Part shown: piece after piece, positions 1,258 to 33,964 of the stretch
Layout: the number at the start of each line of letters is the position of its first letter
How positions within the stretch are numbered: the first letter of the stretch is position 1
Assembly (NCBI GenBank): GCA_028276145.1
Contig: JAPYWX010000003.1
Location: 1 to 34,832 of the forward strand
Direction of reading: 5' to 3'
Length of the DNA: 34,832 bases
Origin: Spirochaetota bacterium
GTDB taxonomy: Bacteria; Spirochaetota; Brevinematia; DTOW01
Program-made: the position numbers and the translations under genes
Notes under the pieces: generated by a model
What the model saw: the letters and a program-made list of their open reading frames with translations, nothing else
Told to the model about the DNA's origin: nothing
Database searches by the model: none

Positions 1258-1577
1258 ATTGATTGTCTTGAAAAAATTAACAGGCTATACCTGTATCAGG
1301 CTAATGCTTGTTTCTTAACAGGCTAGTGCCTGTTTCTTAACAGGCCAATGCCTGTTTCTTAATCAATAAAGTGCTTAAAGCACAAAGTGCTTAAAGCACG
1401 AGTGCTATTTAGCACGAGGTGCTATGAAGCACCTCATTTTTATCGTAGAGATTCATAGTATCTCTGCACTATTAAAAAGTGAAGACAGGCAATACAAAAT
1501 TAAGCAGTCTACAGGATTCAAAAATTGAGTGTTTTAAACACTGAGTGTTTTAAACACATAGTGTTTAAAACACTGAG
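1258..1577. repeat. Mosaic palindromic repeat block (C array, A array, hairpin core, B array)
   Basis: Three 22-bp units acaggctagtgcctgtttctta (1296-1361). Four GTGCT-N3/4-AGCAC (1371, 1387, 1402, 1419). gtagaga..tctctgc hairpin at 1445-1467. Three GTGTT-N3-AACAC (1529, 1545, 1561). Confidence 0.9.
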
Positions 1578-1662
1578 TATGTAAAAATTACACAGCTACG
1601 AGATAACATCTCTTTACCGTGAAGGAAAAGTTTTTTCAACAGAATTCAATAATAAAGCAAAA

Positions 1663-2205
1663 TTATTTGTTCGTAGCCTTTGGTATATATTTTTTGATCA
1701 CATACTCAAAGCTTTCAAATGTTCGTGCTCCTATTATTCTCTCAACTATTTTACCTTCGGTGTTTATGATAAATGTGGTTGGTATTGATGAAATACCACC
1801 GTAGAGATACGCTATTTCACCGTATCTGTCCCAAATTATGGGATAATTGAATTTGTTTTCTCTATAGTTTTTTACATCGCCTAGACTCCTATCAAGAGAC
1901 ACACCAATTATTTGTATTTTATCCTTATAAACTTTCTGTAGCTTTATTAGTTCAGGTATTTCAAATCTACAAGGCGGGCACCATGTAGCCCAAAAGTTAA
2001 CAACTATTATCTTCTTGCCAAGGTAATCAGCCAAATTTACTTTATTACCCTCTATGTCCTTCGCTGAGAATATAAACGCTGGTAAATTCTTTTCACTTTC
2101 TTTTCCTATAGCTTTCTCAACTCCCATCAAATGGATTGGTGAAGATACAAACAATATAGTAACCAAAACTAGTAATGTAACTTTAAAGTTTGATAGCTTT
2201 CTCAT
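1663..2205 (-). CDS. TlpA/ResA family thiol:disulfide oxidoreductase
   Basis: N-terminal hydrophobic segment, VNFWATWCPPC active site, cis-Pro motif SIPTTFII. Confidence 0.9.
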   Translation of the reverse strand: MRKLSNFKVTLLVLVTILFVSSPIHLMGVEKAIGKESEKNLPAFIFSAKDIEGNKVNLADYLGKKIIVVNFWATWCPPCRFEIPELIKLQKVYKDKIQIIGVSLDRSLGDVKNYRENKFNYPIIWDRYGEIAYLYGGISSIPTTFIINTEGKIVERIIGARTFESFEYVIKKYIPKATNK

Positions 2206-2218
2206 ACTTCAGTTCCCA

Positions 2219-3208
2219 CTATTTCTTTGATACTTTTTGTTTTATTTTATCAACATACTTCTCTGCTGCAACTGCTGCTATTGCTCCGTCTGCTGCTGCA
2301 GTTATTGCCTGCCTCAGGAACTTAGAAATACAATCTCCCGCTGCAAAAACTCCCGGTATATTAGTACTCATATCATAGAGGTTAACTTTTATATAACCAT
2401 ACTCATCCTTTTCTAAATCTTCAAACATCTGAGTATTCGGAACCATACCGATAAATACAAAAACACCATCTGTCTTTACCTCACTAATCTCTCCAGTTTG
2501 AACATTCCTTATCTTTACAGCCTCAACCTTCTCGTTACCTATAATTTCCTCTACAACAGAATTGAATATAAATTTAAATTTAGGATTAGCAAAAACCCTC
2601 TCCTGTAAGATTTTTTCAGCTCTAAAAGAATCCCTTCTGTGAATAATAGTAATACTTCTAGCAAAGTTTGCTATGAAAAGTCCTTCATCCAAAGCAGTAT
2701 TTCCCCCACCAACTATGACAACATCCTTATCCTTAAAGAAAGCAGCATCACAAGTAGCACAGAATGAAACCCCCCTACCTATGAACTTCTCCTCTCCCGG
2801 TACTCCAAGTTTCTTATAATCCGCACCAGTAGCAATTATAACACTATACGCTTTTAGCTCTTTACCACTAGCCAACTTAACTGTTTTCAATTCTTCCTTC
2901 AAATTAACTCCCTTTACCTCGTCAAGAATAACCTTAAGCCCATGCTTCCTAGCCTGTTCCTCTAACTTAAGTCCCAACTCATAACCATTTATCTCTGGAA
3001 TCCCTGGGTAATTCTCAACTACATTAGTTGTTGCTATCTGACCACCAGGACCTAACTTTTCAACTAAAACAGCATTCATCCTAGCTCTCGAAGCATAAAT
3101 ACCTGCAGAAAAACCAGCAACCCCACCACCTATTATAACAACATCAAAAACATCATCATAGTTTATCTCCTCCTTAGGCTTACTCAAATTCATAATAGTT
3201 ATATCCAT
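2219..3208 (-). CDS. trxB: Thioredoxin-disulfide reductase
   Basis: GGGVAG FAD motif, GVSFCATCD, VGGGNTA, GVFAAGD. GGGGGAG RBS. Confidence 0.95.
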   Translation of the reverse strand: MDITIMNLSKPKEEINYDDVFDVVIIGGGVAGFSAGIYASRARMNAVLVEKLGPGGQIATTNVVENYPGIPEINGYELGLKLEEQARKHGLKVILDEVKGVNLKEELKTVKLASGKELKAYSVIIATGADYKKLGVPGEEKFIGRGVSFCATCDAAFFKDKDVVIVGGGNTALDEGLFIANFARSITIIHRRDSFRAEKILQERVFANPKFKFIFNSVVEEIIGNEKVEAVKIRNVQTGEISEVKTDGVFVFIGMVPNTQMFEDLEKDEYGYIKVNLYDMSTNIPGVFAAGDCISKFLRQAITAAADGAIAAVAAEKYVDKIKQKVSKK

Positions 3209-3233
3209 ATACTCCCCCCATGTATTTTATAAA

Positions 3234-3262
3234 AATATACAAAAGTTAAAATCTTTTTTCAA
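3234..3262 (-). promoter_or_regulatory. Sigma70-like promoter of trxB
   Basis: TTGAAA-N17-TATATT on the minus strand. Confidence 0.5.
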
Positions 3263-3435
3263 CAGGTTAATACCCGAACAGGTTAACACCTGTTTTAACA
3301 CTTTATTCTAAAGGTAATTATTCACCTACTAGCAACAAGACGTTTTTACAGCTAAGCTCGTAGGGAAATAGTTTTTCTCTCCACATCTAGCCTATTTTTA
3401 TCCATTCATTTAAGGGATGCTAACGCATCCCTTAG
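3262..3435. repeat. Degenerate mosaic repeat block
   Basis: acaggttaacacctgt at 3278-3293 preceded by a degenerate copy. gtagggaaa..tttctctccac at 3360-3384. Hairpin taagggatgc-taac-gcatccctta at 3411-3434. Confidence 0.6.
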
Positions 3436-3524
3436 AAGGAAAATTTTTAAGCATAATTCTACTCAGCATATGTAAGGAAAAATATTTGACTAGAGTATTT
3501 TCATTTGTTTATCTTTAAAAGGGA

Positions 3525-4166
3525 ATGGATGAACTTGTAAGGGTTGAAATTGATGACATAATAATGACGAATACTGGCTTTGCGATGGTTCTTATTGATA
3601 GAGAAAAAGAAAGAGTACTCCCTATATTCATAGGACCATTTGAAGCAAACGGTATTCTAATGAAGCTTCAAGGTGTTTCTTTTCCTAGGCCTTTAACATA
3701 CGATTTAATAAAAAACATCATTGAAATGATGCAGGGATACGTAGAGAAAGTAGTTATAAACGACCTTAGAGACGGAACATTCTACGCAACACTATACATA
3801 GTAACCAATGACCAAGTCTTGGAAATAGATTCAAGGCCAAGTGATGCAGTAGCAATATGTGTGAGGTCTGGTGCTCCTATATATGTTACCGAAAAAGTTA
3901 TGGCAATGTCCTCCATCCCGCTCGAAGAGTATAGCAGCAAAAAAGGATTCAAGTCACAAGAAGAGATTGAAGAAGAAGCATCAAAAGAAAAAGAAGAACC
4001 AAAACTTTATCAAACCAAAGAAGAAAAAACAAAGCAACAAGCAAAGAAAAAAGAAGTTTTAATTGAAGAACTTAAAAAAGAGCTAGAGAAAGCAGTAAAC
4101 GAAGAAAGATTTGAAGATGCAGCCAGAATAAGAGACGAAATAAAGAAACTAACAGAGGAACTATAA
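3525..4166 (+). CDS. Bifunctional nuclease (DUF151) with C-terminal UVR domain
   Basis: LPIFIG.FEA, RPLTYDL, IDSRPSDAVA motifs. C-terminal AVNEERFEDAARIRDEIK UvrB/C motif. Confidence 0.92.
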   Translation: MDELVRVEIDDIIMTNTGFAMVLIDREKERVLPIFIGPFEANGILMKLQGVSFPRPLTYDLIKNIIEMMQGYVEKVVINDLRDGTFYATLYIVTNDQVLEIDSRPSDAVAICVRSGAPIYVTEKVMAMSSIPLEEYSSKKGFKSQEEIEEEASKEKEEPKLYQTKEEKTKQQAKKKEVLIEELKKELEKAVNEERFEDAARIRDEIKKLTEEL

Positions 4167-7527: not shown

Positions 7528-7574
7528 TCCCATTACAAATATAATAAATGTTTAAATAATCTCTATACAATTTA

Positions 7575-8025
7575 GTTTGATCTTGTTGAGAAATTCAACA
7601 GGCTTAGCCTGAACAGGCTTAGCCTGAACAGGCTTGGCCTGTGACAAGCTACTACATGTTCCTCAATTTAAAACAAGAATGTGCTACTAAGCACAACGTG
7701 CTATGAAGCACTCCACCCTCTAATTGATGTAGAGAGGCAAAGCCTCTCTATACTCTACAATGTTTAATAAGGAATTGCCGTTAGGACCCTACGAAGTACT
7801 TTCAAGTATTTATAAGAAGGTGCTATTAAGCACCATACTTACTTTTATTGCAAATATGCGTATCATCCTCTGATGTCTAGCATCTCCATGCTTAGAAGGT
7901 TTGCCAAAAAAATATCCCGGCAACACAGAATACAAGAAATTTAACAATTTAAAGAACCAAGTGTTTAAAACACTCGGTGTTTAAAACAAAACACTTTGTG
8001 TTTAAAACACTTTGTGTTTAAAACA
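7575..8025. repeat. Mosaic palindromic repeat block (C array, A array, hairpin core, B array)
   Basis: Three 15-bp acaggcttagcctga units (7598-7642). A palindromes at 7681, 7698, 7820. tagagaggc-aaa-gcctctcta at 7730-7750. gtgtttaaaacac at 7961, 7977, 7998, 8014. Confidence 0.9.
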
Positions 8026-8032
8026 ATAGTAC

Positions 8033-9286: not shown

Positions 9287-9379
9287 TAGGGGGGCTACCG
9301 CCTCCCCTAAAACCTTAAATGTGCTTAATAGCGCTTGTGCTACAAGCATTTGTGCTACAAGCACTTGTGCCATAGGCAC
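9287..9379. repeat. Hairpin plus A-type palindrome array
   Basis: taggggggc-tacc-gcctccccta at 9287-9309. Units at 9321, 9337, 9352, 9367; the last is GTGCC-ATA-GGCAC. Confidence 0.8.
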
Positions 9380-9697: not shown

Positions 9698-9807
9698 AGA
9701 ACTCTAATTATCAAGAAATATTAATACTTAAATCAATAAAAAAATTCCGCTGAAAAAATCTCATGCCATGTAGCACTCTCAGTAGGGAAGGGCTATATAC
9801 AATCATA

Positions 9808-9834
9808 AAAAATAAAAAGGGGCGAAGCCCCCTT
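9808..9834 (-). terminator. Intrinsic terminator after the por operon
   Basis: GGGGC-TTC-GCCCC followed by a T-rich tract on the minus strand. Confidence 0.75.
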
Positions 9835-9842
9835 ATACAGAT

Positions 9843-10781
9843 TTATGCAACTCCACAAAGTTTCTTATACTTCTCGTAGTTACTGATAACATCCTGCTTA
9901 AACTTTTCAAGAAGTTCAGGATTCTTAAGCAATTTAGCAAATCTCTTTTGGGATGCTAAAAATTCTTCTATTGGCTTAAGTTGTTTTGGATTTGCTGAAC
10001 TCCACTTGTATACGCCATTTTCGTACTCGACTAACGGCCAATAACCTGTTTCAACCGCAGCCTTCGCTAAAGATACGGCATCACCAACCGGCATATTCCA
10101 ACCAGGGATACAAGGTGTCAGAGAAAGTATAAATGTAGGTCCTTCTACAGTTAACGCTTTTTGGATTTTTGTTATGAGGTCATTCCAGTGATATATGCTA
10201 ACGGTTGCTGCGTATGGTATACCATGAGCAACAGCAATTGCGAACAAATCTTTTCTTGTTTGTGTTTTTCCTGGGATTTTTTTACCAAACGGTGCAGTGG
10301 TAGTATCAGCATACAGAGGTGTAGCACTACTTCTCTGATAACCTGTATTCATGTAAGCTTCGTTATCGTAAGCAATATAAAGTATATTGTGTCCTCTCTC
10401 TAGAGCACCCGACAAACTCTGTAAACCTATATCGAAGCTAGCACCATCACCACCAATGGCAACGAATTTTACCTTTCTGTCATCTTTTATCTTTCCTTTA
10501 GCCTTAAGAGCATAATAAGCTCTTTCCACACCTGATATTGCAGCAGGAGCATTCTCAAATGCCACATGTAACCAAGGGTATTTCCAAGCACTCTCGGGAT
10601 ACACACTACTTGTAACTTCCAAACATCCTGTAGCATTAGCTATAACAACATCAACACCAGCAGTCTTCGAAGCAATAAATAGTTCTCTAACGAAAACAGC
10701 AACACCACAGCCAGCACACATTCTGTGCCCTTTAACATAAGCAGCTTCCATTCCAGCAATTTGCTTTAAATTAATAGCCAT
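9843..10781 (-). CDS. porB: Pyruvate:ferredoxin oxidoreductase beta subunit
   Basis: GHRMCAGCG, ATGCLEV, GGDG TPP-binding motif, DNEAYMNTG. Confidence 0.93.
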   Translation of the reverse strand: MAINLKQIAGMEAAYVKGHRMCAGCGVAVFVRELFIASKTAGVDVVIANATGCLEVTSSVYPESAWKYPWLHVAFENAPAAISGVERAYYALKAKGKIKDDRKVKFVAIGGDGASFDIGLQSLSGALERGHNILYIAYDNEAYMNTGYQRSSATPLYADTTTAPFGKKIPGKTQTRKDLFAIAVAHGIPYAATVSIYHWNDLITKIQKALTVEGPTFILSLTPCIPGWNMPVGDAVSLAKAAVETGYWPLVEYENGVYKWSSANPKQLKPIEEFLASQKRFAKLLKNPELLEKFKQDVISNYEKYKKLCGVA

Positions 10782-10784
10782 AAA

Positions 10785-12005
10785 CTACCTCCCTAAAAGA
10801 TTAGGATTTAATCCTACATAAACAATTTGGCCAGAGATACCTTCTTTCAAAGAATATTCTGCATGCTCGTACATCTCGTAAGCATCATCATCGGTGAAAT
10901 CTCTACCACCTAAACCATAGATGTAATCATTAACCAAAACAATTCTTTTATTAGCAAAAAGTCCTGAAGTTATGTCTTGATAAAGTGGTGAACCAGTAGT
11001 ACCTATACTAAGAGCTCTATCCATGACAGCAATGAATTTAGCCGAAGGTATCAGCTCTAAGAACTTTTCGACTACAAAAGGTCTATAGACCCTGACCTTG
11101 ATAACACCTACCTTCTTCCCTTTCTCTCTCAATTTGTCAACTACATACCTTATAGTTCCAGCAGTAGAGTTCATAACAACAAAAACTATCTCCGCATCTT
11201 CCGTTTTGTACGCCTCAAAGAAATCCATCTTTACACCTGTTTCTTTATAAAACTCTTCAAAAACTTTTTCTATTACGCCTACTGACCTATCCATAGCTTT
11301 TTTCATGTCAACTCTAAATTCAAAGTAATGAGAAGGCATTGCCCACTCACCGGCAGATATAGGATTATCAAAGTCAAGAATGTTATAAGGTGCTTTATAT
11401 TCCCCTACGAAATTCTTCACAAAAGAGTCCTCAAACACATCTACAGCCTCAACGCAGTGGCTTGTGATAAATCCATCCTGGTTGACCGCAACAGGCAAAA
11501 ATACATCTGGATGCTCACCTATTCTAAAAGCAACAATATTGTTATGATAAACCTCTTGTGGATTCTCTGAAAATAGCATTATCCATCCCAAATCTCTGAT
11601 AGCCATAGCGTCAGAGTGGTCACAATGGATGTTAAGAGGAGCTGAAATAGCTCTATTCACAATGTTCATAACAATTGGTAATCTCATCGAAGAAGCAATA
11701 GCCACTACCTCCCACATCAGAGCTAATCCTTGAGAAGATGTCGCAGTCATAGCTCTAGCGCCAGACATTGCTGCCCCAACAACTGCACTTAAAGCACTAT
11801 GCTCAGACTCAACCTGTATCATTTCAGTATTAACAAGTCCATCAGCTACAAATTGAGCGAATTCCTGAACTATCGGTGTCTGAGGAGTAATAGGATAAGC
11901 AGCAACTACATCAGGCTCAACCTGCCTCATAACCTCAGCAGCAGCTTGAGCACCTGTCAAAGCTTTCCTAACAACAGATACTTTTGATACTACACCATCA
12001 CTCAT
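10785..12005 (-). CDS. porA: Pyruvate:ferredoxin oxidoreductase alpha subunit
   Basis: AAYPITPQT, VESEHSA, TATSSQG, YGLGGRD. Confidence 0.93.
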   Translation of the reverse strand: MSDGVVSKVSVVRKALTGAQAAAEVMRQVEPDVVAAYPITPQTPIVQEFAQFVADGLVNTEMIQVESEHSALSAVVGAAMSGARAMTATSSQGLALMWEVVAIASSMRLPIVMNIVNRAISAPLNIHCDHSDAMAIRDLGWIMLFSENPQEVYHNNIVAFRIGEHPDVFLPVAVNQDGFITSHCVEAVDVFEDSFVKNFVGEYKAPYNILDFDNPISAGEWAMPSHYFEFRVDMKKAMDRSVGVIEKVFEEFYKETGVKMDFFEAYKTEDAEIVFVVMNSTAGTIRYVVDKLREKGKKVGVIKVRVYRPFVVEKFLELIPSAKFIAVMDRALSIGTTGSPLYQDITSGLFANKRIVLVNDYIYGLGGRDFTDDDAYEMYEHAEYSLKEGISGQIVYVGLNPNLLGR

Positions 12006-12015
12006 AAATACCTCC

Positions 12016-12303
12016 TTAAACCTCTGGTACCATACTTATAGCTTTTGTCGGGCAAACATTTGAACATAAAGAACAACCTTTACAATAATCATAATCAAAT
12101 CCTAACATCTGACCATCCTTAACAACTATGCTATCATCTGGACAATTTAACCAACATATCATACAATTCACGCATTTTTCCTTATTTAAAACTGGTCTAA
12201 ACGACCTCCAACCACCTGTCTTGTTTTCAAGAGAAGTACCACCTTTAGCATAGCCACCCGGATTTATAGAAAAAGATACTATCTCCTTGTCTACCTTCAA
12301 CAT
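12016..12303 (-). CDS. porD: Pyruvate:ferredoxin oxidoreductase delta subunit (2x[4Fe-4S])
   Basis: KTGGWR.FRP, CVNCMICWLNCP and CKGCSLCSNVCP. Confidence 0.93.
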   Translation of the reverse strand: MLKVDKEIVSFSINPGGYAKGGTSLENKTGGWRSFRPVLNKEKCVNCMICWLNCPDDSIVVKDGQMLGFDYDYCKGCSLCSNVCPTKAISMVPEV

Positions 12304-12305
12304 AC

Positions 12306-12890
12306 CTACCCTCCTATAATTTCACTCATTCCCTTATCAAATGCTAACAAGTTTTTATTGACCCCTTCCTCACCTAACTTCTTAATAAACTTCTTCCTTA
12401 TACTCTCTTTAACCTTCTCGGGATCTATTATACCAACTATCTTAACCGTAGCTCCCAAAAGAGGAATATTAGCAAAATTTTTACCAAAAAGGTCAAGAGC
12501 TATTTTCGTAGCGTTCACAGTGTAAACTTTCACATTACTAGGAATATTATACTTCTTCCTAACAGTATCCGGTGAATCAGAAGTATTAACAATAATACAA
12601 GAATCCTCTTTAATACCTTCCAAAACATTTTCAGCATGGAACAAACTCTCATCCATAACAACAACTACATCAGGCTTCGTTATCTGATAATGAACAGATA
12701 TTTTATCTTTGGAAATCCTACTATACGCCTTCATTGGTGCTCCAGTTCTCTCAGCACCAAACTCCGGAAATGACTGAGCATACATGCCTATGTCTATAGC
12801 AGCCTCTGCAAGAAGCTGAGCTGCTGTCTTGGCACCTTGACCAGCCCTACCGTGTATCCTTATATCATAAAACTCTTTCACCCCAACCAT
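12306..12890 (-). CDS. porC: Pyruvate:ferredoxin oxidoreductase gamma subunit
   Basis: IRIHGRAGQG and FGAERTGAP. ATG at 12890 with AGGGGG RBS. Confidence 0.92.
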   Translation of the reverse strand: MVGVKEFYDIRIHGRAGQGAKTAAQLLAEAAIDIGMYAQSFPEFGAERTGAPMKAYSRISKDKISVHYQITKPDVVVVMDESLFHAENVLEGIKEDSCIIVNTSDSPDTVRKKYNIPSNVKVYTVNATKIALDLFGKNFANIPLLGATVKIVGIIDPEKVKESIRKKFIKKLGEEGVNKNLLAFDKGMSEIIGG

Positions 12891-12908
12891 AACACCCCCT
12901 GATTTCAA

Positions 12909-13107: not shown

Positions 13108-13355
13108 ATGCACTATGAGCACAATGCACTTCAAAGCACAACACGCTACTAAGTACTAAATAATGACTCTTTCTCTACTTCTTAGAACGCCTGAAGTAAT
13201 ATTAAAAAGGCTATCAACTTTAAAACTCTAAGGGAGGCTATCGCCTCCCCTAACTCTATAAGTATCATCAAAAATCAAGTTTTACTAACAAAAAGTGTTA
13301 TAAACACAGTGTGTTATAAACACTTTGTGTTATAAACACTCTGTGTTATAAACAC
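13108..13355. repeat. Degenerate A units, hairpin and perfect B-type array
   Basis: agggaggc-tatc-gcctccc hairpin at about 13231-13249. Four identical GTGTTATAAACAC at 13295, 13311, 13327, 13343 (16-bp period). Confidence 0.9.
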
Positions 13356-15276: not shown

Positions 15277-15356
15277 ACATGTATAATTATCGTTAACTAA
15301 ACCATCAAAAATAAAGTAACATTGTAAAAAATTCAAGAGCCTACGGCTCTTTTTTA

Positions 15357-15836
15357 TTAAGTGCTTTGAGCACTTAACAAAAAGTATTATTTAGCACACT
15401 ATTTTAAGTAGTCCCATTTACTTCTTTAATCGTAGAAAGCTTTGACCTCTTCTCACTCTCCATCTCCAAAGCATGAAAAGAGTTTATTAACTTAACAGTT
15501 AAGTGCTACTAGCACGCTACTATTAGTAATCCCCATCACCCACCCTATTTAATTGTCAAGAGTTTTCACCTCTCAACACTCCTCTACCGAAACATGAAAA
15601 TAAAAGAAGTGCAATCTAGAACCCATCCACTCTGCTTTATTGCTGTAAACGAGTTTTCCAACACCTTTTACTTATCAAAAAGGCTATTAAGCAAATGAGC
15701 TTTAAGGTACTTAGAACACTAAATAAAAGAGGTGCTTTAAGCACAGGTACTACATAGCACAAGTGCTACACAACACAAGTGCCACATAGCACAGGTATTT
15801 AGAAAATATAATTTTTCGGGAGGCGGAGCCTCCCGG
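15357..15836. repeat. Large mosaic repeat block with several degenerate cores
   Basis: A palindromes at 15361, 15503, 15732, 15747, 15763, 15779. Cores near 15411, 15530, 15622. cgggaggc-gga-gcctcccg at 15817-15835. Confidence 0.8.
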
Positions 15837-15850
15837 TAGAAAATCAATAT

Positions 15851-18430
15851 CTATGAACACTTTGTATAGCCACAATTCTTACATACAAAGCATCCATTTT
15901 CATTAACTAATGCCTTCTCACCACAGCTAGGACATTTCTCCATTTTGGCATTTTCAACTTTTAATTTAACAGCCTGAACTTGATTTTCACTCGATTTATC
16001 AGCAAGCGAAAATGTTCCATTGCCGTTATTAGTACCGTGGGCGTGATCAACAGAATCAGTAATATCATCTCTTTCCTGCTTTTTGTGAGTTGTTTTTTCT
16101 GAAACTTTGATATCTTCTTTGTACTGCCCTTTGTATATTATCATAAGTGCCTTAGAAACAGCATCAGGTATGGAATGTAATGCTATTCCCTGGTCCCAAA
16201 AAGTCTCACTTCCTTTTATCCCTTCTAACTGCTCTATAACAGTCTCTATATCCCCCCCATTCTGGAGATATATACTTATCAGCCTACCAATTGCTTCAGC
16301 ATCTGCCTTCTCATCACCACCACTCTTACCTATGTTTATAAAAACTTCTTTTATCTGATTATTCTCATCTTTGTTCACTGTAACATAAAGGCTTCCTTGA
16401 GGCAACCTAAACTTTACAGTCTCACCAACCATTATTCTAGGTCTCTTAAAGGAAGGCTTAGCCTCTTCTTTCTTTTCGCTAGCTTTTTGCTCAGTTATCA
16501 ACACTCCTTCCCTACTGCCTTCCCTGTAAACTGTTATACCTTTACACTTTAGTTTCCAACTATAGAAGTATATATCACTTATTGTTTTCTCAGTTGTATC
16601 GCTCGGCAAGTTAACTGTACTACTAATACTATGGTCTATATGCTTCTGTATTGTTGCCTGCATTTTAACCCTGAAATAAGGGTCAATCTCATGAGCCGTA
16701 ACAAAGAAGTCAGGTAACTCCTCCTCACTCTTGATTCCGTACTTCTCCATATACCTCTTAACAAGAGGATGATAAACCTTAAAGAACTCCTTACTTAAGC
16801 TTTCACTTCTTCTAACATACGATAGAGCAAACACAGGTTCTATACCACTAGTCACTCCTGCCAAAAGTGCACCACTACCAACAGGGGGAACCGTAAGCAG
16901 CGCTACATTTCTAAGCCCATACTCTTTTATCCTCTCTTGAACCTCTTTATCTAACTTCTTTATGAATGGGCTTTTTAAGTGTTTCCTTGGATCAAACGCT
17001 GGAAACTTACCTTTTTCTATAGCTAAGTTAACACTTTCATCATATGCAATGTTCTTTATTCTATCAAAAAGCTCATCAACAAAATCTATAGCTTCATCAG
17101 AATCGTATTTTATCTGCATCTTTATAAGCATATCGCCAAGCCCAGTAAATCCAACTCCAATTCTTCTAGATCTCATTGATGCTTCACTTTGTTCCTTCAA
17201 AGGATGTCTATCCCTGTTATAATCCAAGACATTATCCAAAAACCTTACAGTATACCTTACTGCCTTTTCTAAGTTTTCCCAGTCCACCTCTGCATTATTC
17301 GTAAACTCATTCAAAACAAACCTCTCAAGGTTTATATTCCCAAGACAGCAATCACCATAAGGCTCAAGAGGTATCTCACTACAAGGATTAGTAGTAAGAA
17401 CATACATATCATCATATTCACTAGTTGAGTTCTTCTTCATCGTTGAGATAAATATCACGCCAGGCTCAGCTGAAGCCCAAGCATTGTGTATTATCTTATT
17501 CCATATATCTTTAGCCTTGACTACCTTGTAAACTTTCCTCTTCCTTATTTCATTTTTGTTAGTAACATAGAAGTAAACTTTAGGTGTAGGTGTATGAAGC
17601 CACATGTCATAGAAACTTCTCTTTGCTAAATCTATAGCAACAAAATCTTCTCTACCTTGCAACTTAGAAAGAACCTCATTAATATCACTTGTACCAAACT
17701 CCTTAATAAGGTCACTTTCTCTCATTATATCAGGATACCAAAGTTCCCAATCATCATCGTTCAATACAGCATTCATGAACTCATCAGTTATTTGAACTGA
17801 AATATTAGCATATCTAACCTTCATTCTAAGTGGGTCATTCTTTATTGTAATGAATTCCTCAACATCAGGATGTTGACAATTAATGGTTATCATTAGTGCT
17901 CCTCTCCTACCACTTTGCCCTATTGTACCAGTAGTCAAGGAGTATAGGTCCATGAAAGAGACAGCACCTGTTGAGGTGTAGGCTGCGTTATTGACTGGCG
18001 AACCTTTAGGCCTCAATACCGAAATGTCTATACCAACACCACCACCAAAGGAATATGTTCTAGCCATTTCCTTCATAGTTTCATATATATCTTCTATGCT
18101 ATCCCCTTTTATAGGCAGGACATAACAATTAAGCAAGGTTGCCTTTCTTTGCTCCTGCCCAGCTCCAAACATTATTCTACCACCGGGAACCATCCTAAAG
18201 TCCTCTAAAAGCCAATAAAACTTCTCATACCACTCCTGCTTTTTCTCCTCCGTTTGCTCAACACTAGATATAGCCCTTGCTACTCTTCTCCACATCTCAG
18301 GTGGAGTTCTTTCTATAATATTTCCATTATAGTCCCTTAAAGCGTACTTCTCTAGAAAAACTCTAGCTCTAAGCTCATCATTTTCAAACCATTCCAAAGT
18401 TTCCTTTGGTAAATCAAGAAGTTTACTCAT
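15851..18430 (-). CDS. nrdJ: Adenosylcobalamin-dependent (class II) ribonucleotide reductase with C-terminal TSCPD/Zn-ribbon
   Basis: PGGRI, NCYV, TNPCSEIPL, CCLGNINL, GIEP, KGITVYR, CPSC..C..C..C C-terminus. No adjacent beta subunit. ATG at 18430 after a G-rich RBS. Confidence 0.88.
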   Translation of the reverse strand: MSKLLDLPKETLEWFENDELRARVFLEKYALRDYNGNIIERTPPEMWRRVARAISSVEQTEEKKQEWYEKFYWLLEDFRMVPGGRIMFGAGQEQRKATLLNCYVLPIKGDSIEDIYETMKEMARTYSFGGGVGIDISVLRPKGSPVNNAAYTSTGAVSFMDLYSLTTGTIGQSGRRGALMITINCQHPDVEEFITIKNDPLRMKVRYANISVQITDEFMNAVLNDDDWELWYPDIMRESDLIKEFGTSDINEVLSKLQGREDFVAIDLAKRSFYDMWLHTPTPKVYFYVTNKNEIRKRKVYKVVKAKDIWNKIIHNAWASAEPGVIFISTMKKNSTSEYDDMYVLTTNPCSEIPLEPYGDCCLGNINLERFVLNEFTNNAEVDWENLEKAVRYTVRFLDNVLDYNRDRHPLKEQSEASMRSRRIGVGFTGLGDMLIKMQIKYDSDEAIDFVDELFDRIKNIAYDESVNLAIEKGKFPAFDPRKHLKSPFIKKLDKEVQERIKEYGLRNVALLTVPPVGSGALLAGVTSGIEPVFALSYVRRSESLSKEFFKVYHPLVKRYMEKYGIKSEEELPDFFVTAHEIDPYFRVKMQATIQKHIDHSISSTVNLPSDTTEKTISDIYFYSWKLKCKGITVYREGSREGVLITEQKASEKKEEAKPSFKRPRIMVGETVKFRLPQGSLYVTVNKDENNQIKEVFINIGKSGGDEKADAEAIGRLISIYLQNGGDIETVIEQLEGIKGSETFWDQGIALHSIPDAVSKALMIIYKGQYKEDIKVSEKTTHKKQERDDITDSVDHAHGTNNGNGTFSLADKSSENQVQAVKLKVENAKMEKCPSCGEKALVNENGCFVCKNCGYTKCS

Positions 18431-18531
18431 ATACCCCCCCACTTACATTTTGTAATTATTAAACCATTTTTCAAAAAAAATCAAGAACAAAAAAATCCGG
18501 GTAGAATCCGAGACATTACCTAATCAACTTC

Positions 18532-20032: not shown

Positions 20033-21839
20033 TACCTCCCCAAATCCACCTTCTAGGCATCTTCACTTTGTTTACATCCTCATACTCAACATCCCCCAAG
20101 TTCTCACCCTCAACAAATAGCTTAACACCTGAAAGCAATTCATAGGAAACTTTAGCATTTATCAAAGTGTATGTCGTGTATGGTAGCAAATTACCATTCG
20201 CATCCTTCCCTTCAAATCTATTCCTAAAGCTTACAAGAGTATAAATACCAAAACCATATAGGTTTTGATAAACAACTAAATTAGCTTGATGCTCTAGATA
20301 CTTATCATACCTGAATGTGTAATTATCAGGTACCCCAGAATCAAACTTCGAGTATGAATAGAATACCTTAAGTAAGCCACCCTCAAGGAAGTTATGACTA
20401 AAATTCAACCCAACTTCAACACCACCACCACTAATCCACCTTATATTTTGTGCCTCAAACCTTAATCCAGGAATAGATTTATCATCAGCAAAATCTATAA
20501 CATTCAAAGCATCTCTCCAGTACCCAGAAACAAACAAATAAGAACTCTGTTCTTCATTAAGGAAGTAAAATAGATTTAGCTCATAATTCCATCCTTCTTC
20601 GGGCTTTAGGTTAGTGTTACCGAATGCTATGCCATCATAATAGTAAAGTTCAATATAGGTAGGTACTCTAAAGAACCTTGAAGCACTACCTGAGACTTTG
20701 ATAGAGTCTATTATGTAATAGTATCCTTTCAAGGAAGGTGACGGAACAACACCATAAACTCTATCACCCAAATACCAAATATCATTTCTTAGCCCAATAG
20801 AAAGAGAAGACTTATCAATAGGTGAAAAGCCATATTCAAATACAACTCCAAAAGGTACATCGTACCTGTTACCAAGTAAATTTGTCTCACCGTTTGTCGT
20901 ATAAGCTTTACTGTCAATAATGTTACCTCTCCCCTCAGCTCTCACAAACAACGAACCATAGTTACCAAAATCAAACGTGTTCTCAACACTCAAAACAGAT
21001 TGATACTTAACATGATTGTTTGTCTGAGTAGTAGGAGATGAAATATTGACAATATAGTTATCTATAGCACTCTTTGCAAGTAGGTTAACCTTGAATTTGC
21101 CAAAACCAAAACTAGCAATCCCTAATGTACCTACTTCACTTTCCCTAGCTTCAGTACCATAAAATAAGCTAGCACCATACTTCTTTTCAATATGTCCAAC
21201 AAATAAAACAAATTCTCCACCAAACAACTTCGAGACAAAAGTCGTATTCAAAATCCACTCATCAAAATCAGTGTTAAACTTCCATCCATCGCTTGTTTTC
21301 TTATCAAACGAAAACCTAAAACCAAGTACACCAAACCCCTTAGAAACCGAAAAAGTACTTCCAAAAAGCCCATAACCACCAACATAACTCCTTATATTAA
21401 CACCTTCAACAATCTCTTTCGATATATCAAAATTAATAACCCCTCCAATAGCATCACTACCATAAATAGTCGAATTACCTGACTTCTGAATAGAAACAGA
21501 ATCAATATCATAAACAGTAAAAGGCAAAGACAAATTCAAATGCCCCGTCTGAATATCATTGAAAGAAACACCACTCAAAGCGAAAGAAACCTGACTAAAC
21601 CTGCTACCCCTAATACTTACATCACTCTGAATATCAAAAGGAGCTCTATTCTGTAAATAAATACCGCTAGCCTCAAGCAAAGACCTAAAAGACACATAAT
21701 TATTGACATTCGTTAGTACCTCAACCACCGAGTACCCTTCACTAACCCTAGTATCAACAACATACTCCTCTAACTCAGTCCCAAAAGTAAAAGCATTCGC
21801 CACTAAAACCAAAAATAAACTTGCTAATAATCTTCTCAT
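20016..21839 (-). CDS. TonB-dependent outer membrane receptor
   Basis: Signal peptide, plug motifs VSIRGS and IYGSDAIGGVINF, barrel motifs FRVPT..ELY and GN.NLKPE, C-terminal Phe. ATG at 21839 after GGAGG. Confidence 0.9.
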   Translation of the reverse strand: MRRLLASLFLVLVANAFTFGTELEEYVVDTRVSEGYSVVEVLTNVNNYVSFRSLLEASGIYLQNRAPFDIQSDVSIRGSRFSQVSFALSGVSFNDIQTGHLNLSLPFTVYDIDSVSIQKSGNSTIYGSDAIGGVINFDISKEIVEGVNIRSYVGGYGLFGSTFSVSKGFGVLGFRFSFDKKTSDGWKFNTDFDEWILNTTFVSKLFGGEFVLFVGHIEKKYGASLFYGTEARESEVGTLGIASFGFGKFKVNLLAKSAIDNYIVNISSPTTQTNNHVKYQSVLSVENTFDFGNYGSLFVRAEGRGNIIDSKAYTTNGETNLLGNRYDVPFGVVFEYGFSPIDKSSLSIGLRNDIWYLGDRVYGVVPSPSLKGYYYIIDSIKVSGSASRFFRVPTYIELYYYDGIAFGNTNLKPEEGWNYELNLFYFLNEEQSSYLFVSGYWRDALNVIDFADDKSIPGLRFEAQNIRWISGGGVEVGLNFSHNFLEGGLLKVFYSYSKFDSGVPDNYTFRYDKYLEHQANLVVYQNLYGFGIYTLVSFRNRFEGKDANGNLLPYTTYTLINAKVSYELLSGVKLFVEGENLGDVEYEDVNKVKMPRRWIWGGIEVKF

Positions 21840-21899: not shown

Positions 21900-21910
21900 G
21901 TAAAGCATCA

Positions 21911-22270
21911 GTGCTTCATAGCACTAGTGCTTCACAGCACTTTTTTATCAACCATTGAGAATTGCAGAGAGCCGGAAACCTCTTGACATCAAACATAACA
22001 AGATTCTTATTGTTCTTAATTACTTTGTTCCAATAGCATATTGTGCTTATAACAAATTTTTGACAAAAAACGGGTTAATCGGGAGGCTAAACATCTATAT
22101 TAGATGGGTTAAAGTGCTTCGTAGCACTTTGTGCTTAGTAGCACTTTCTTAATGTTTTGGAGAGTGAAGAGGGGCGAAGCTTCTTTTCAAATAATTAGGA
22201 CGTGCGGAGTGCTTATTAGTACCTAGTGCTTACTAGCACTTACTTAATTAACTCGTGCTCCATAGAACTA
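21911..22270 (-). repeat. Mosaic repeat block in inverted orientation
   Basis: A palindromes at 21911, 21927, 22114, 22131, 22226. Inverted core at about 22148-22215 with GCGAAGC loop. Confidence 0.85.
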
Positions 22271-22772: not shown

Positions 22773-22992
22773 GTGCTTAAAGCACATAGTGCTTAAAGCA
22801 CGTAGTGCTTAAAGCACAGTGTACCAGACTTGTTCCTAATAACACTTTTTACTAAACACTGGTGAGTGAAGAGAGGCTTTGTAACTCTAAAATAATTAGG
22901 ATGGGTAAGGGTGCTTATAACATCCTTAATTGAGTACTTAATAGCATTTTCTCAGTTATTCTAGAAAACGTGGAGAGGTGAAACCTCTTCAT
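22773..22992 (-). repeat. A-type array plus inverted cores
   Basis: Three identical GTGCTTAAAGCAC at 22773, 22789, 22805. Inverted core at about 22850-22922. agaggt-gaa-acctct at 22974-22988. Confidence 0.85.
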
Positions 22993-24798: not shown

Positions 24799-24822
24799 TA
24801 CCGGGGATAACATTCCCCGGTA
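24799..24822. terminator. Hairpin downstream of the amylase gene
   Basis: taccgggga-taacat-tccccggta. Confidence 0.55.
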
Positions 24823-24922
24823 TCCAATTAATCAAAATAATTTCAACAATACTTCCATCAAACTTACTTACGGTAAAGTCAGGCATATCCTTAGTGTGAC
24901 ACGGTCTAGAAACAGCTATCAA

Positions 24923-25030
24923 TTTATTGTTTTGAAAAATTCAACAGGCTAAGCCTGCCACAGGTAAACCTGTCTCTCTTCAATCACCAGAGTAGGAATT
25001 TTCACCTGTCTTAAATGTTTAGTAAGTAAA
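24923..25030. repeat. C-type module with conserved left boundary and degenerate core
   Basis: ttgttttgaaaaattcaacaggctaagcctg, acaggtaaacctgt, ctctcttcaatcaccag. Confidence 0.65.
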
Positions 25031-29039: not shown

Positions 29040-29290
29040 TATTAGATGTTTCACCTCTCTTTACCCTCAAACACCTTTCACTTACCAAAGAACACAAGTG
29101 CTATTAACACTCAAGAAGGTGTATTTAGCACTTTACTTTTAGTAGCCCCCAATCTATTTGATTGTTGAGAGGTTTCACCTCTCTTCATTCTTCAATGTGT
29201 AATAAGAATGTGTTACTAAGCACAACGTGCTATGAAGCACGACGTACTATGAAGAACAAAGTGCTATGAAGCACAAAGTGCTATAAGCAC
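29040..29290 (+). repeat. Mosaic repeat block (cores plus A-type array)
   Basis: gagaggt-ttc-acctctc at 29167-29183. Units at 29210, 29227, 29244, 29261, 29278 (17-bp period). Confidence 0.88.
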
Positions 29291-29294
29291 ACAG

Positions 29295-30658: not shown

Positions 30659-30750
30659 AACAGGCTAGACCTATTACTTACAGGTTAAACCCAGCTTCTA
30701 TAAAAAAGAATTTCATATTCATCGCAGAGAGGCGTAGCCTCTCTGTACTC
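30659..30750. repeat. Degenerate C units plus core hairpin
   Basis: acaggctagacct, acaggttaaacc. cagagaggc-gta-gcctctctg at 30725-30745. Confidence 0.65.
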
Positions 30751-30773
30751 TTATAAAAATAATTTAATAATCC

Positions 30774-31328
30774 TCACTCAAACTCAACTTCTTCGGAAGG
30801 TACTAACTTAACATATCTATTCTTACCGAAGTAGAATATAGGTGAAACTTTGTTTAAGATGGGTCTTTCGTTTTCATCAAAAACATCAGGATTTATATGA
30901 ACAGTTAGAACCTCTCCAATTATCAAATTATGATCTCCAATCTCTTCATCTTTGACAACTTTACATTCATACACAGCATAGGAGATAGGTAGAATGACAA
31001 TTCCATCGTTTTTACCTTCTTGCACAGGAATATTAAACTTAGAGATTTTGTCTACTTCCCTGCCAGAAACAGAACCTATGTTATCAACCAATTTTAGGTA
31101 ATCCCAGCTCAAAAAATTAGCAGAGAATTTCTGAGATTTTTTTATTAGCTCGTAGGTGTATCTTTTCTTAGCTATCATTACAGCAAAATACCTAGGATTT
31201 GAAGAAACGCCAGAATTCCAAGCAACTGGCATTAAGTTGATTTTATTCTCAAACTTCGTAGCTACGACAGTAACAATATTAGGGTAAAAATGGTAAAATT
31301 TATTACTCTTACTTTCAACTAGCTGCAT
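30774..31328 (-). CDS. Flavin reductase family protein
   Basis: NLMPVAW, GSVSGREVDK, YECKV....GDH.LIIGEV. Confidence 0.88.
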   Translation of the reverse strand: MQLVESKSNKFYHFYPNIVTVVATKFENKINLMPVAWNSGVSSNPRYFAVMIAKKRYTYELIKKSQKFSANFLSWDYLKLVDNIGSVSGREVDKISKFNIPVQEGKNDGIVILPISYAVYECKVVKDEEIGDHNLIIGEVLTVHINPDVFDENERPILNKVSPIFYFGKNRYVKLVPSEEVEFE

Positions 31329-31330
31329 AA

Positions 31331-31903
31331 CTATATTCTTTCAGCTTGGTCAAAATATATATTCACTGGTGTTTCCCTGTTAAATATTTCTACGATTACC
31401 TTTAGCTTGAACTTATCATTGTGAACCTCAGCTACTCTTCCAACAAGCCCCTTAAACGGACCATCCGTTATTCTTACTTGATCTCCAACCTCAAATGTAG
31501 ACGATAGATCCAGAAAAGCCTTACTCTTAAACTCTCCTATCCTCTCGAATATTGACCTAACTTCCTCAAATGACAATGGCTTTGGTGGCTTCCTCAAAGA
31601 CTTCGTTCCAAGGAATCCAATAACTCCTGCTATTCTTTTTATTGCCGCCATGAACCTCTCTAGAAGATGCTCATCCTGTGGTAAATCCAATTCCATCAAT
31701 ATATATCCAGGGTAAACTCTTTGTTTCTTAATAATTTTTTGATTTGTTTTTGGGTTTTTTACCTCAACATTCTCAGTAGGTATCTTTACATTTATTACTA
31801 TCTTCTTAAAATCCTCATCCGACAATATTTCCTTTTTTATCCTCTCAACAACTTTATTTTCCATTCCGGAGACAGCTTGTAGCACATACCATGCTCTACC
31901 CAT
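31331..31903 (-). CDS. nusG: Transcription termination/antitermination factor NusG
   Basis: WYVLQ..SG.E, YPGYIL, KOW motif GDQVRITDGPF, IFNRETPV. Confidence 0.95.
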   Translation of the reverse strand: MGRAWYVLQAVSGMENKVVERIKKEILSDEDFKKIVINVKIPTENVEVKNPKTNQKIIKKQRVYPGYILMELDLPQDEHLLERFMAAIKRIAGVIGFLGTKSLRKPPKPLSFEEVRSIFERIGEFKSKAFLDLSSTFEVGDQVRITDGPFKGLVGRVAEVHNDKFKLKVIVEIFNRETPVNIYFDQAERI

Positions 31904-31910
31904 AAAACAC

Positions 31911-32096
31911 CTACCTAAGAAGCAGTCCTATCAAAGTAGAAGCTATAAAATCGACTAATCCTAGAATTAGCGATAAGATTAATATAAAAACAATAGTAAC
32001 TGTAGATGAGGCAACAACCTCTTCCTTGGAAGGCCAAGAGACCTTCCTCATTTCATCTATTACACCTTTAAAAAAATCAATAAGTCTTCTAAACAT
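31911..32096 (-). CDS. secE: Preprotein translocase subunit SecE
   Basis: EMRKVSWPSKEE plus one TM. ATG at 32096, because the longer ORF overlaps tRNA-Trp. Confidence 0.93.
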   Translation of the reverse strand: MFRRLIDFFKGVIDEMRKVSWPSKEEVVASSTVTIVFILILSLILGLVDFIASTLIGLLLR

Positions 32097-32108
32097 AATC
32101 TTATCCTT

Positions 32109-32183
32109 CAGGTCTGGTGGGGCTCGAACCCACAACCTCCGGATTTGGAGTCCGGCGCTCTAGCCAGTTAGAGCTACAGACCT
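32109..32183 (-). tRNA. tRNA-Trp (CCA)
   Basis: AGGTCTG...CAGACCT-G, anticodon arm CCGGA-CTCCAAA-TCCGG. Canonical position before secE. Confidence 0.95.
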
Positions 32184-32189
32184 AAGTAA

Positions 32190-32272
32190 TGGGGATGGAG
32201 GGACTCGAACCCTCACGGGTTTTCACCCAGGGGATTTTAAGTCCCCCGCGTCTGCCATTCCGCCACATCCCC
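32190..32272 (-). tRNA. tRNA-Leu (TAA)
   Basis: GGGGATG...CATCCCC-A, anticodon arm GGGGA-CTTAAAA-TCCCC, long variable arm. Confidence 0.95.
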
Positions 32273-32281
32273 ATCAAAAAA

Positions 32282-32311
32282 ATTATACAAAACAACGAAA
32301 AATAATTTCAA
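32282..32311 (-). promoter_or_regulatory. Sigma70-like promoter of the tRNA-secE-nusG operon
   Basis: TTGAAA-N18-TATAAT. Confidence 0.6.
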
Positions 32312-32338
32312 ATTGTACAGATTGTATTGAAAAACTAT

Positions 32339-32357
32339 AGAGAGGCTCCGCCTCTCT
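32339..32357. repeat. Isolated core-type hairpin
   Basis: agagaggc-tcc-gcctctct. Confidence 0.65.
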
Positions 32358-32422
32358 GGAATAAAAAGCTAAAAATCAAATTATTTACTCAAATACATTC
32401 ATGAAAAACCGATCTCTTCAAC

Positions 32423-33709
32423 TTAGCTAACAGTATATACCACCTTACCACCAACAACTGTATATTTAACAATCCCATAAACCTCGAAACCAAGAAAACA
32501 CGAATTTTTCCCCTTAGAAACAAAAAATTCTTCGTCTATTACATACTTCTTTCCAGGGTCAAATACTACTATATCGGCATCTGCACCTTCTGAAATATGT
32601 CCCTTCTGTGAAAGCCCTAAAATTTTCGAAGGATTAAATGAAAATACTTTTATTAATTCCATAAAATCCAAAATTCCTTCCTTCACTAACTTCGTAAACA
32701 CAATAGGTAACGCAGTTTCAAGCCCAATTGTCCCAAAAGGTGCTTCCTGTAGTGTGAGAGATTTTTCAAACTTAGTATGCGGAGCATGGTCCGTTGCTAT
32801 CACATCCACTATTCCATCTTTCAAAGCCTCAATAAGAGATTCCCTATCTTCTTCAGTTCTTAAAGGGGGATTCATCTTCTTATTTGTATCTAAATGCCCT
32901 AATATGTCATCTTCCGTGAGAACCAAATGATGGGGTGTAACCTCACAGGTAACATTAATTCCCATGCTTTTCGCCCACCTTATTAGTTCAACAGATTCTT
33001 TAGTAGATATATGCTGTAAGTGTAACCTACTTTCAGACTCTTTGGCCAAGAGTACATCCCTTGCAACAGCAGTAGACTCTGAAGAATTAGGTATACCCTG
33101 TACACCTAATTCCAAAGATTTAACACCTTCGTTTATTACACCTCCAGAAGACAAACTGACATCCTCTGGATGCTCCAAAATAAGAACATCAAAATTTCTA
33201 GCGTACACAAGAGCCTTCTGCATTATTCTAGCGTCGTAAACAGGCTTGCCGTCATCAGAAAATGTAATACATCCTAGCTCTTTGAATAATCCCATCTCAG
33301 TTATTTCCTTGCCTTCCATATTCTTTGTTATAGTAGCGGATTGCAAAACATTGACCACCGATTTTTTCTTTATCCTCTCAACAACATCTATGTAAACCTC
33401 AGGCAAGCTTATAGGCGGGTTAGTATTAGCCATAGCAACGATTGTCGTTATACCTCCTTTAGCTGCAGCTTTCGTGCCTGTTTCTATGGTTTCCTTATTT
33501 TCAAACCCGGGCTCTCTCAAATGGACATGCATGTCAATCAAACCAGGGAAAACAAACATTCCACTTGCATCAATCACTTCACATTCATAATTCAAATTCT
33601 TTCCAACCTTTGCAATTTTACCATCAGAGATGAGAATATCTAAACTCTCACCGTTAATTTTATTCTTATAGCAGTATACAGACCCATTCTTTATAAGAAG
33701 ATTTGCCAT
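32423..33709 (-). CDS. pyrC: Dihydroorotase (type I)
   Basis: DMHVHLREPG, MANT.P, FSDDG, KMNPPLR, ATDHAPH. Confidence 0.95.
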   Translation of the reverse strand: MANLLIKNGSVYCYKNKINGESLDILISDGKIAKVGKNLNYECEVIDASGMFVFPGLIDMHVHLREPGFENKETIETGTKAAAKGGITTIVAMANTNPPISLPEVYIDVVERIKKKSVVNVLQSATITKNMEGKEITEMGLFKELGCITFSDDGKPVYDARIMQKALVYARNFDVLILEHPEDVSLSSGGVINEGVKSLELGVQGIPNSSESTAVARDVLLAKESESRLHLQHISTKESVELIRWAKSMGINVTCEVTPHHLVLTEDDILGHLDTNKKMNPPLRTEEDRESLIEALKDGIVDVIATDHAPHTKFEKSLTLQEAPFGTIGLETALPIVFTKLVKEGILDFMELIKVFSFNPSKILGLSQKGHISEGADADIVVFDPGKKYVIDEEFFVSKGKNSCFLGFEVYGIVKYTVVGGKVVYTVS

Positions 33710-33850
33710 ATATAAAGTTTAAAAGATTTCAACAGCATCATTACCAATTTCCTAAAAAACTACTACCTACTTACCACTTTCACAACTGTACTATACTTAA
33801 CCTAATTACTAAGTAAAAAGCCTCAATATAGTCATAAATATGCTTCATTA

Positions 33851-33964
33851 GTATTAAACACTAGAGAGTAAAGAGAGACGAAGTCTCTCTTCAAACAATT
33901 AGGGTGGAAGAGTGAGGCCACTAGAAGTAATGTTCTAATTCATAATCAAGTGCTAAAAGCACTT
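33851..33964 (-). repeat. Inverted core element plus A palindrome
   Basis: aagagagac-gaa-gtctctctt at 33871-33891 within a reverse-complement core. gtgctaaaagcac at 33950. Confidence 0.8.

Follow-up and report, generated by a model that had tools for sequence, protein, structure and literature searches.

What are the short palindromes that fill the spacers between the genes of a hot-spring spirochaete, and how are they multiplied and remodelled? The question is raised by a stretch of 34,832 nucleotides of Spirochaetota DNA (GenBank JAPYWX010000003.1), here called the window, which is the entire contig C32 of the metagenome-assembled genome G000. The assembly comprises 1,572,535 bp on 202 contigs with 35.5% G+C and is 82.7% complete, and sequencing runs that contain window DNA carry the labels hot-spring or microbial-mat metagenome. 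An earlier note on this DNA had described a kit of four palindromic modules, A to D, and had proposed that they are either moved by an enzyme encoded elsewhere, as similar palindromes are by RAYT nucleases (repetitive-extragenic-palindrome-associated tyrosine transposases), or bound by a nucleoid protein. We demonstrate that the modules are parts of one oriented composite, in which a CAGGC-hairpin leader is followed by a mini-hairpin array, a core of ~100 nt and another array. In our best reading the composites constitute a new family, remodelled fast, whose core is unusual in having three structures; no mobilising enzyme was found. With moderate confidence we regard the family as lineage-specific, non-coding and non-autonomous mosaic repeats that resemble BOX elements and bacterial interspersed mosaic elements (BIMEs) and that live and change at the DNA level.

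Module A (GTGCT-N3/4-AGCAC) occurs 23 times in the window and module B (GTGTT-N3/4-AACAC) 10 times, including one B match at 20977 that falls within the open reading frame of a TonB receptor and looks like a chance occurrence. Module C is present in three strict copies (ACAGGC..GCCTGT), or nine intergenic ones in the looser form CAGG[CT]..[AG]CCTG, and three AGAGAGG..CCTCTCT hairpins represent module D. At least one module was found in 13 of the 18 window spacers of at least 60 bp. Coding and intergenic DNA of the genome were separated by a long-open-reading-frame proxy (88% coding, ~12% intergenic). On this basis, the 909 genome-wide copies of A divide into 875 intergenic and 34 coding ones and are present on 151 of the 202 contigs; the intergenic and coding counts are 63 and 18 for B, 39 and 1 for C, and 85 and 3 for D. 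Chance means for intergenic DNA, obtained from 50 first-order Markov simulations, were 0.16 for A, 0.3 for B, 0.02 for C and 0 for D. No simulation yielded more than one copy of A, B or C, and D was zero throughout. In G000 we counted 346 cores and some 1,504 units. Of the intergenic bases 22.9% lie in modules, versus 0.19% of the coding bases, and modules are present in 257 of 426 spacers of at least 100 bp, namely in 32/43 convergent, 104/171 divergent and 121/212 tandem ones. As 60 of 404 contig ends stop inside a module, the real copy numbers are probably higher. The claims of the earlier note about abundance are thereby borne out: it had seen more than 20 copies of A in about 12 spacers and had supposed an intergenic-only, high-copy, multi-module family that extends beyond the window, and the motif count against controls that it proposed gave a strong intergenic excess (875 copies of A where 0.16 are expected). 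It had also not recognised the family. In agreement with this, an Rfam scan of the window returned nothing at gathering score except three tRNAs, and literature searches aimed at a prior description found none, with the supplements of the papers outside their scope (the ITxF database of PMC4666352 may include triplex motifs from related genomes).

Alignments of the sequences flanking purine-arm hairpins and G/C-run motifs revealed the anatomy of the composite. On the C-rich strand, the leader opens in some copies with a TGTTGA..TCAACA hairpin and continues with CAGGC/CAGGT hairpins, each followed by TTCTT. The mini-hairpin array after the leader closes with a degenerate unit, TACTT..AAGTA. The composite then proceeds from a C3-run tract over a short AT-rich linker to a long hairpin, whose stem of 8-12 bp has a purine-rich 5' arm, and further to a pyrimidine flank and an AT-rich linker, behind which the second mini-hairpin array comes. 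Using an nhmmer core model seeded from 32 copies and a cut-off of E ≤ 0.01, we detected the 346 cores genome-wide; the window contains 10 of them, and 5 fall within the coding proxy. All motifs of the four-module kit are present in this anatomy, but B is not a separate module, being A with a compensated stem change. Similarly, D had been taken for a hairpin core of about 60 bp; the hairpin exists, but it is only one part of a core of about 100 nt that also includes the C/G tract. The two blocks for which the same order C-A-D-B had been claimed, 1258-1577 and 7575-8025, indeed both show C, A, core and B on the + strand, although the core of the first, at 1402-1481, is degenerate (nhmmer E = 0.004). 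Intergenic leader-hairpin copies number only 13 genome-wide, one of them doubtful. We considered an outward promoter in the leader and rejected it: the 13 copies lie 3 to 311 bp from the neighbouring gene, and the insert at 7578 does not include the tRNA promoter region, which is ancestral.

The mini-hairpin units are 13-14 bp long and follow one another head to tail with 3-nt spacers and a period of 16-17 bp. That 358 of 758 successive A-to-A distances measure 15-17 bp shows that the units stand in tandem arrays. Besides 875 stems with perfect GTGCT/AGCAC arms there are 356 with one mismatch and 337 with two. Among the latter, 125 are exactly compensated, compared with about 4% expected if the changes were independent, and the compensated types are scattered over many spacers (GTGTT in 31, GTGCC in 27, GTACT in 14 and the doubly compensated GTGTC in 8). 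The long hairpin behaves in the same way: across 22 aligned copies 95.5% of the cells are paired, two-sided changes affect 8 of 10 pairs, and the covariation score is 0.474 versus 0.194 for shuffled and at most 0.14 for slid partners. In both hairpin kinds structure rather than sequence is conserved. Since every unit is its own complement, a whole array would also be able to fold back into one long nested hairpin.

The same arrays could offer a dimeric DNA-binding or nucleoid-associated protein one binding site after another, and the composite would then be a chromosome-organising scaffold. The strong preference for one stem sequence, seen in the 875 perfect stems against 356 and 337 with one and two mismatches, would agree with this, as would the regular period and the symmetry of the units, which look alike on both strands and have no wobble bias. 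For a single unit the predicted RNA folding energy is -3.9, -1.7 and 0.0 kcal/mol at 37, 55 and 70 °C; a 5-bp hairpin is marginal at hot-spring temperatures, which makes recognition as duplex plausible. However, a dimer that reads sequence should not tolerate compensated stem variants, and these occur in dozens of spacers. Unit numbers vary freely between near-identical strains, a congener lacks the arrays at the same loci (see below for both), and no candidate protein has been identified. We therefore consider a protein scaffold improbable.

The C tract and the long hairpin add two further structures to the core. The complement of the C tract is a G-quadruplex motif (four runs of at least three G, loops of 1-3 nt), mostly of the form G3-N1-G3-N1-G3-N1-G3, of which 39 copies exist genome-wide. 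All 39 are intergenic, and each of the 32 copies that are far enough from a contig end sits in a core. None of the 10 cores of the window has kept a canonical motif, their tracts being degenerate. In the long hairpin, the 5' arm has a mean purine fraction of 0.72, and the 3' arm forms with the downstream flank a mirror repeat that varies together with the stem family. The mean mirror run is 3.81 versus 2.77 for permuted flanks (200 permutations, maximum 2.96) and 2.0 on the upstream side, and it reaches at least 5 in 61 of 198 long hairpins. By its sequence, the long hairpin with its flank has the layout of an intrastrand pyrimidine-purine-pyrimidine triplex, into which it may fold.

Do these structures matter in DNA or in RNA? 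G-T wobble would be tolerated only on folded RNA or on a single strand of one polarity. In mini-hairpins the wobble pairs are distributed 102 versus 94 between the two strands (with 81 other mismatches), and in long hairpins 45 versus 36 (with 104 others). This lack of strand preference points to DNA and not to RNA, and the weight of evidence is that the constraints or processes act on DNA. The symmetry speaks at the same time against an RNA-level role of the elements, whether as regulatory RNA or through untranslated-region structures by which transcripts are stabilised or terminated. Among the tandem spacers, the sense strand is the G-rich one in 55 and the C-rich one in 23, a further spacer being mixed (p = 0.0004), so that 55 of the 78 uniformly oriented ones would favour such a role, and REP (repetitive extragenic palindromic) and BOX elements have been described to affect transcripts (PMC3049150). 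Moreover, contigs from four metatranscriptome libraries (X15-X18) contain repeat sequence, and one of them links the ribonucleotide reductase gene's 3' end, across the terminator-like hairpin of this gene, with an A array. These contigs mainly span genes and often end at repeats, but as contigs they carry neither strand nor level and may include DNA. Divergent spacers (104/171) are as rich in elements as tandem ones (121/212). We also rejected the long hairpin as an intrinsic terminator of the canonical kind: a run of at least four T within 10 nt follows it in only 22 of 222 cases on the C strand and 12 of 222 on the G strand. Altogether, a function in RNA appears very improbable to us.

The composites are oriented. 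Unit loops point in the same direction as the core in 575 of 649 cases, and in 78 of 80 spacers with at least two cores all cores have the same direction. For 133 cores in tandem spacers, the orientation agrees with the GC skew of the contig in 102 cases and disagrees in 31, a fit at least as good as that to gene direction. Since the skew correlates with gene direction (r = 0.76), the effects of replication and transcription on orientation are inseparable.

How fast the elements change can be seen from two metagenome contigs of near-identical strains, L040 and L041, which show 96-98% identity to the window in most aligned segments (21.8 kb; one 191-bp spacer piece has 90%). Nine spacers were compared. 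Most differences concern the number of units. At 13295, four units in the window correspond to seven in L040; at 15760, 48 bp equivalent to three units are missing from both L040 and L041; differences of one or two units occur at 21909, 22719, 24961 and 29290; and in the arrays of 21911..22268 the unit numbers vary among all three strains. Whole cores are gained and lost as well. L040 has an extra core within the array at 29240 and lacks cores through deletions of 15337-15580 (about 244 bp) and 24802-24990, the latter allele being also carried by an RNA-library contig, and in L041 a deletion of 29050-29150 removes about 100 bp of core. The leader hairpins 24932..24972 have two more units in L041, whereas the region is missing from L040. 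Finally, the perfect 9-bp hairpin 30725-30745 has the loop GTA in the window and TAC in L040 and L041; it seems that the whole palindrome has been inverted or re-templated. A newly colonised spacer was not seen among the three strains.

More distant relatives were compared as well. The A motif is found 909 times in G000, 24 times in the congener G001 (~85% identity; 96% complete) and 0-5 times in 39 other genomes of the class. Contig C5 of G001 is collinear with the whole window at about 80-88% identity, and the comparison of orthologous spacers, which the earlier note had suggested, gave a clear result: the syntenic 36 kb contain none of the 23 A units, none of the 10 B units and no C. Over 74 distinct syntenic gaps (78 pairs listed, 4 duplicates; ~400 kb of G001), A occurs 121 times in G000 versus 4 times in G001, and no core was found in these gaps of G001. 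Twelve of the syntenic gaps measure 190-933 bp in G000 versus at most 70 bp in G001. What G001 retains are two decayed units at one spacer and one core-like relic. A covariance model of the core matches 3 of 43 class genomes, which are G000 (at least 85 matches), G001 (1) and the sister-genus genome G002 (93% complete; 21). The cores of G002 have a small hairpin, a C tract, a long purine-arm hairpin and a matching mirror flank, and no GTGCT arrays were found around them. In addition, complete composites with canonical G runs are present on the metagenome contig L042, which comes from another species (amylase protein identity 83%); an element stands upstream of the amylase gene, and the neighbouring gene differs between the G000 species and L042. 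The core therefore predates the genus. The arrays and the great expansion are recent and patchy. The neighbouring genes do not need the element, because the congener keeps the same genes without it.

To our knowledge, RAYT/Y1 transposases are the only enzyme family known to move palindromes of this type. Pfam model PF01797 (Y1_Tnp/RAYT) gave no hit in the three repeat-bearing genomes G000, G001 and G002, and its only hit in the eight genomes of the family is in G005, where no core matched. Together with the head-to-tail arrangement of the copies, this speaks against the mobilisation by RAYT that the earlier note had in mind. TnpB (PF07282), rve (PF00665) and IS110 (PF01548) likewise had no hits. 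PF01609 detected a single insertion sequence (IS) family with an intact 318-aa DDE_Tnp_1 frame at C2:472-1467 and partial copies on C64, C58 and C86. The IS element on C2 is visibly more G+C-rich than its surroundings, and several of the copies lie at contig ends. This IS5-like element was rejected as the parent of the repeats, its terminal repeats being absent from the element ends.

The block 7578-8032 comprises 455 bp between a stop codon and a tRNA promoter and has TTAGTT on both sides. Positions 7528-7577 upstream of tRNA-Pro are conserved in G001 up to the exact start of this block, and in G001 the stop codon of the neighbouring gene is 4 bp from the conserved upstream region of tRNA-Pro. 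Such colonisation of new spacers, clear from the twelve gaps that are short in G001, would be expected if the elements were mobilised in trans by an enzyme that acts on single-stranded hairpin DNA, of Y1/HUH or an unrecognised type, and that is encoded on the unassembled part of the genome. Such an enzyme would suit oriented and hairpin-rich elements, and the agreement of 102 of 133 tandem-spacer cores with GC skew is as expected of insertion into one replication strand. Room for its gene remains in an assembly of 82.7% completeness in which 60 of 404 contig ends lie in a module. On the other hand, the domain searches in the repeat-bearing genomes were negative as described, the IS family has other ends, and at 12 insertion sites compared with G001 we found no consistent common termini or target-site duplications. 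The skew signal itself cannot be separated from an effect of transcription. In our judgement, mobilisation in trans is rather unlikely, if less so than a protein scaffold or an RNA-level role.

Our preferred reading, mosaic repeats that live and change at the DNA level, would account for the observations as follows. Units might be gained and lost when folded-back single strands slip at the replication fork. Unequal recombination or gene conversion, for which the arrays would serve as homology, could copy or delete cores. Hairpin-templated repair would maintain the complementarity of the arms, and the orientation bias might reflect a strand-specific tolerance of the G-rich, structure-forming strand. 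Several points weigh against this reading. Slippage and recombination account for change inside a spacer and not for the colonisation of new ones, of which 7578-8032 is an example, and a transposition-like step or an enzyme may exist that was missed in the incomplete assembly. The orientation bias may stem from a function linked to transcription and not just from tolerance. Furthermore, the copies share descent, so that independent events are fewer than the covariation counts suggest, and gene positions rest on the long-frame proxy and not on a gene caller. A more far-reaching proposal would be a new kind of element that combines hairpin array, G-quadruplex/i-motif and triplex in fixed order and either spreads without a known transposase, for example by structure-induced template switching at the replication fork, or serves the thermophilic host as a temperature- or supercoiling-sensitive insulator that separates transcription units; we give it a small chance, comparable to that of the protein scaffold.

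Of the known repeat systems, BOX of Streptococcus pneumoniae has been described as boxA - boxB(n) - boxC with a strain-variable number of units and predicted stem-loops (PMC3049150). The likeness is one of design only, both being composite intergenic repeats with fixed end or core modules and an internal tandem unit of strain-variable number. The boxB module has a size of roughly 45 nt. In contrast, the variable unit in our family is a palindrome of 16-17 bp, arrays flank both sides of the core, the core includes a G-quadruplex/C-tract and a triplex-type hairpin, and the density is far higher, with 22.9% of the intergenic DNA. The host phyla are unrelated and the sequences presumably so as well, homology to streptococcal boxA, boxB and boxC not being expected in a spirochaete relative. 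With REPs, BIMEs and REPINs (REP doublets forming hairpins) the family shares high-copy extragenic palindromes in a mosaic, lineage-specific and strain-variable arrangement. A BIME consists of REPs in alternating orientation with defined linker motifs between them, whereas the arrays described here are head to tail with 3-nt spacers and a 16-17 bp period. The units, at 13-14 bp, are shorter than REPs, and the elements are equally common in divergent spacers as elsewhere. In REPIN/RAYT systems a single-copy RAYT gene is usually flanked by the repeats, and the hairpins have a conserved GTAG tetranucleotide at the 5' foot; in our family GTAG is found at the foot of one long-hairpin subfamily only, and the mini-hairpins start with GTGC. 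A REPIN is an inverted pair of REP palindromes (PMC3337134), but copies in our family are uniformly head to tail in 78 of 80 spacers with at least two cores, and the REPIN/RAYT pairing is not seen, with no Y1/RAYT gene in three repeat-bearing genomes.

Intrastrand triplex motifs have been described as intergenic purine/pyrimidine hairpins with a fold-back third strand that are linked to local deletions and rearrangements (Holder et al. 2015, PMC4666352). A purine-arm hairpin with a mirror-repeat third strand is also present in our family, including G002, and strains are rearranged in both cases. Here, however, the triplex is deduced from the layout, the motif belongs to a composite with further parts, and its sequences are unlike the E. 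coli motif described in PMC4666352. Miniature inverted-repeat transposable elements (MITEs) are likewise small, non-coding, structured and present in high copy number. In contrast to MITEs, our elements lack terminal inverted repeats, a consistent target-site duplication is absent from the 12 sites, and the ends of the only IS family found are unlike theirs.

Coordinates of repeat features in the window (strand as assigned; a dot denotes none)
Feature	Position	Strand
Leader (C) module, three CAGGC/CAGGC-like hairpins, TTCTT after each	1279..1356	+
Mini-hairpin array, 4 GTGCT units; degenerate core 1402-1481 overlapping and following	1371..1432	+
Mini-hairpin array, 3 GTGTT units (compensated A variant)	1529..1573	+
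Lone C-type hairpin 3277-3294 and lone long purine-arm hairpin 3411-3434	3277..3434	.
Complete composite block, absent from G001 (4 bp there)	7578..8032	+
Block 7578..8032, leader: TGTTGA..TCAACA hairpin, three CAGGC hairpins 7599-7641		
Block 7578..8032, body: A units 7681-7711; core 7680-7776, long hairpin 7730-7750		
Block 7578..8032, second part: A unit 7820-7833, GTGTT units 7961-8023		
Mini-hairpin array, 4 units, one of them compensated GTGCC	9321..9379	.
Core fragment, long hairpin 13232-13249, then 4 GTGTT units (7 in L040)	13229..13355	+
A unit, tandem cores 15383-15475 and 15502-15584, 4-unit array 15732-15792	15361..15792	+
Arrays 21911-21940, 22114-22144 and 22209-22268 around core 22148-22240	21911..22268	-
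3-unit GTGCT array 22773-22817 and core 22846-22945	22773..22945	-
Leader hairpin and two CAGGC/CAGGT hairpins	24932..24972	+
A-like unit, core 29122-29209 (long hairpin 29167-29183), arrays 29210-29240 and 29261-29290	29098..29290	+
Core fragment, long hairpin 30725-30745	30717..30766	+
Solitary AGAGAGGC..GCCTCTCT hairpin beside tRNA-Leu/tRNA-Trp genes	32339..32357	.
Core 33852-33940 with degenerate G tract and long hairpin 33871-33891; one A unit 33950-33962	33852..33962	-

The gene content around these features is ordinary, with housekeeping and carbohydrate genes that include those for B12-dependent ribonucleotide reductase, pyruvate:ferredoxin oxidoreductase, a TonB-dependent receptor, GH13 amylases, MiaB and dihydroorotase, as well as three tRNA genes. 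The four-gene cluster of the oxidoreductase and the reductase gene (9843-12908 and 15851-18442) adjoin the TonB-dependent receptor, and this gene set fits an anaerobic, B12-scavenging lifestyle. G+C-rich hairpins at the 3' ends of genes (15335-15351, 15817-15835 and 24801-24822) are separate from the repeat family and look like ordinary terminators; a T run follows the hairpin at 15335, and that at 15817 is kept in G001. The 145-bp spacer 9698-9842 corresponds to about 2 kb in G001 (C5:20747-22725), where one or two additional genes are probably located. Elsewhere in G000, a repeat of ~29 nt with a period of 64-66 bp occurs at C109:18404-18887, C8:10131-10325 and C184:12845-12901, all at contig ends. 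Its commonest 24-mer is present in 8, 3 and 1 copies, respectively, and the three pieces are probably a single CRISPR array divided among contig ends.

Mosaic intergenic repeats are known from a few well-studied bacteria, and for most of these repeats the mode of spread is unclear. The family presented here fills almost a quarter of the intergenic DNA in a small (~1.6 Mb), low-GC hot-spring genome. The repeats explain the poor assembly of G000 and can be used as strain-typing markers. The family offers a good natural system in which to study the multiplication of structured repeats that have no dedicated transposase, as well as the effects of hairpin, quadruplex and triplex motifs on the stability of genomes.

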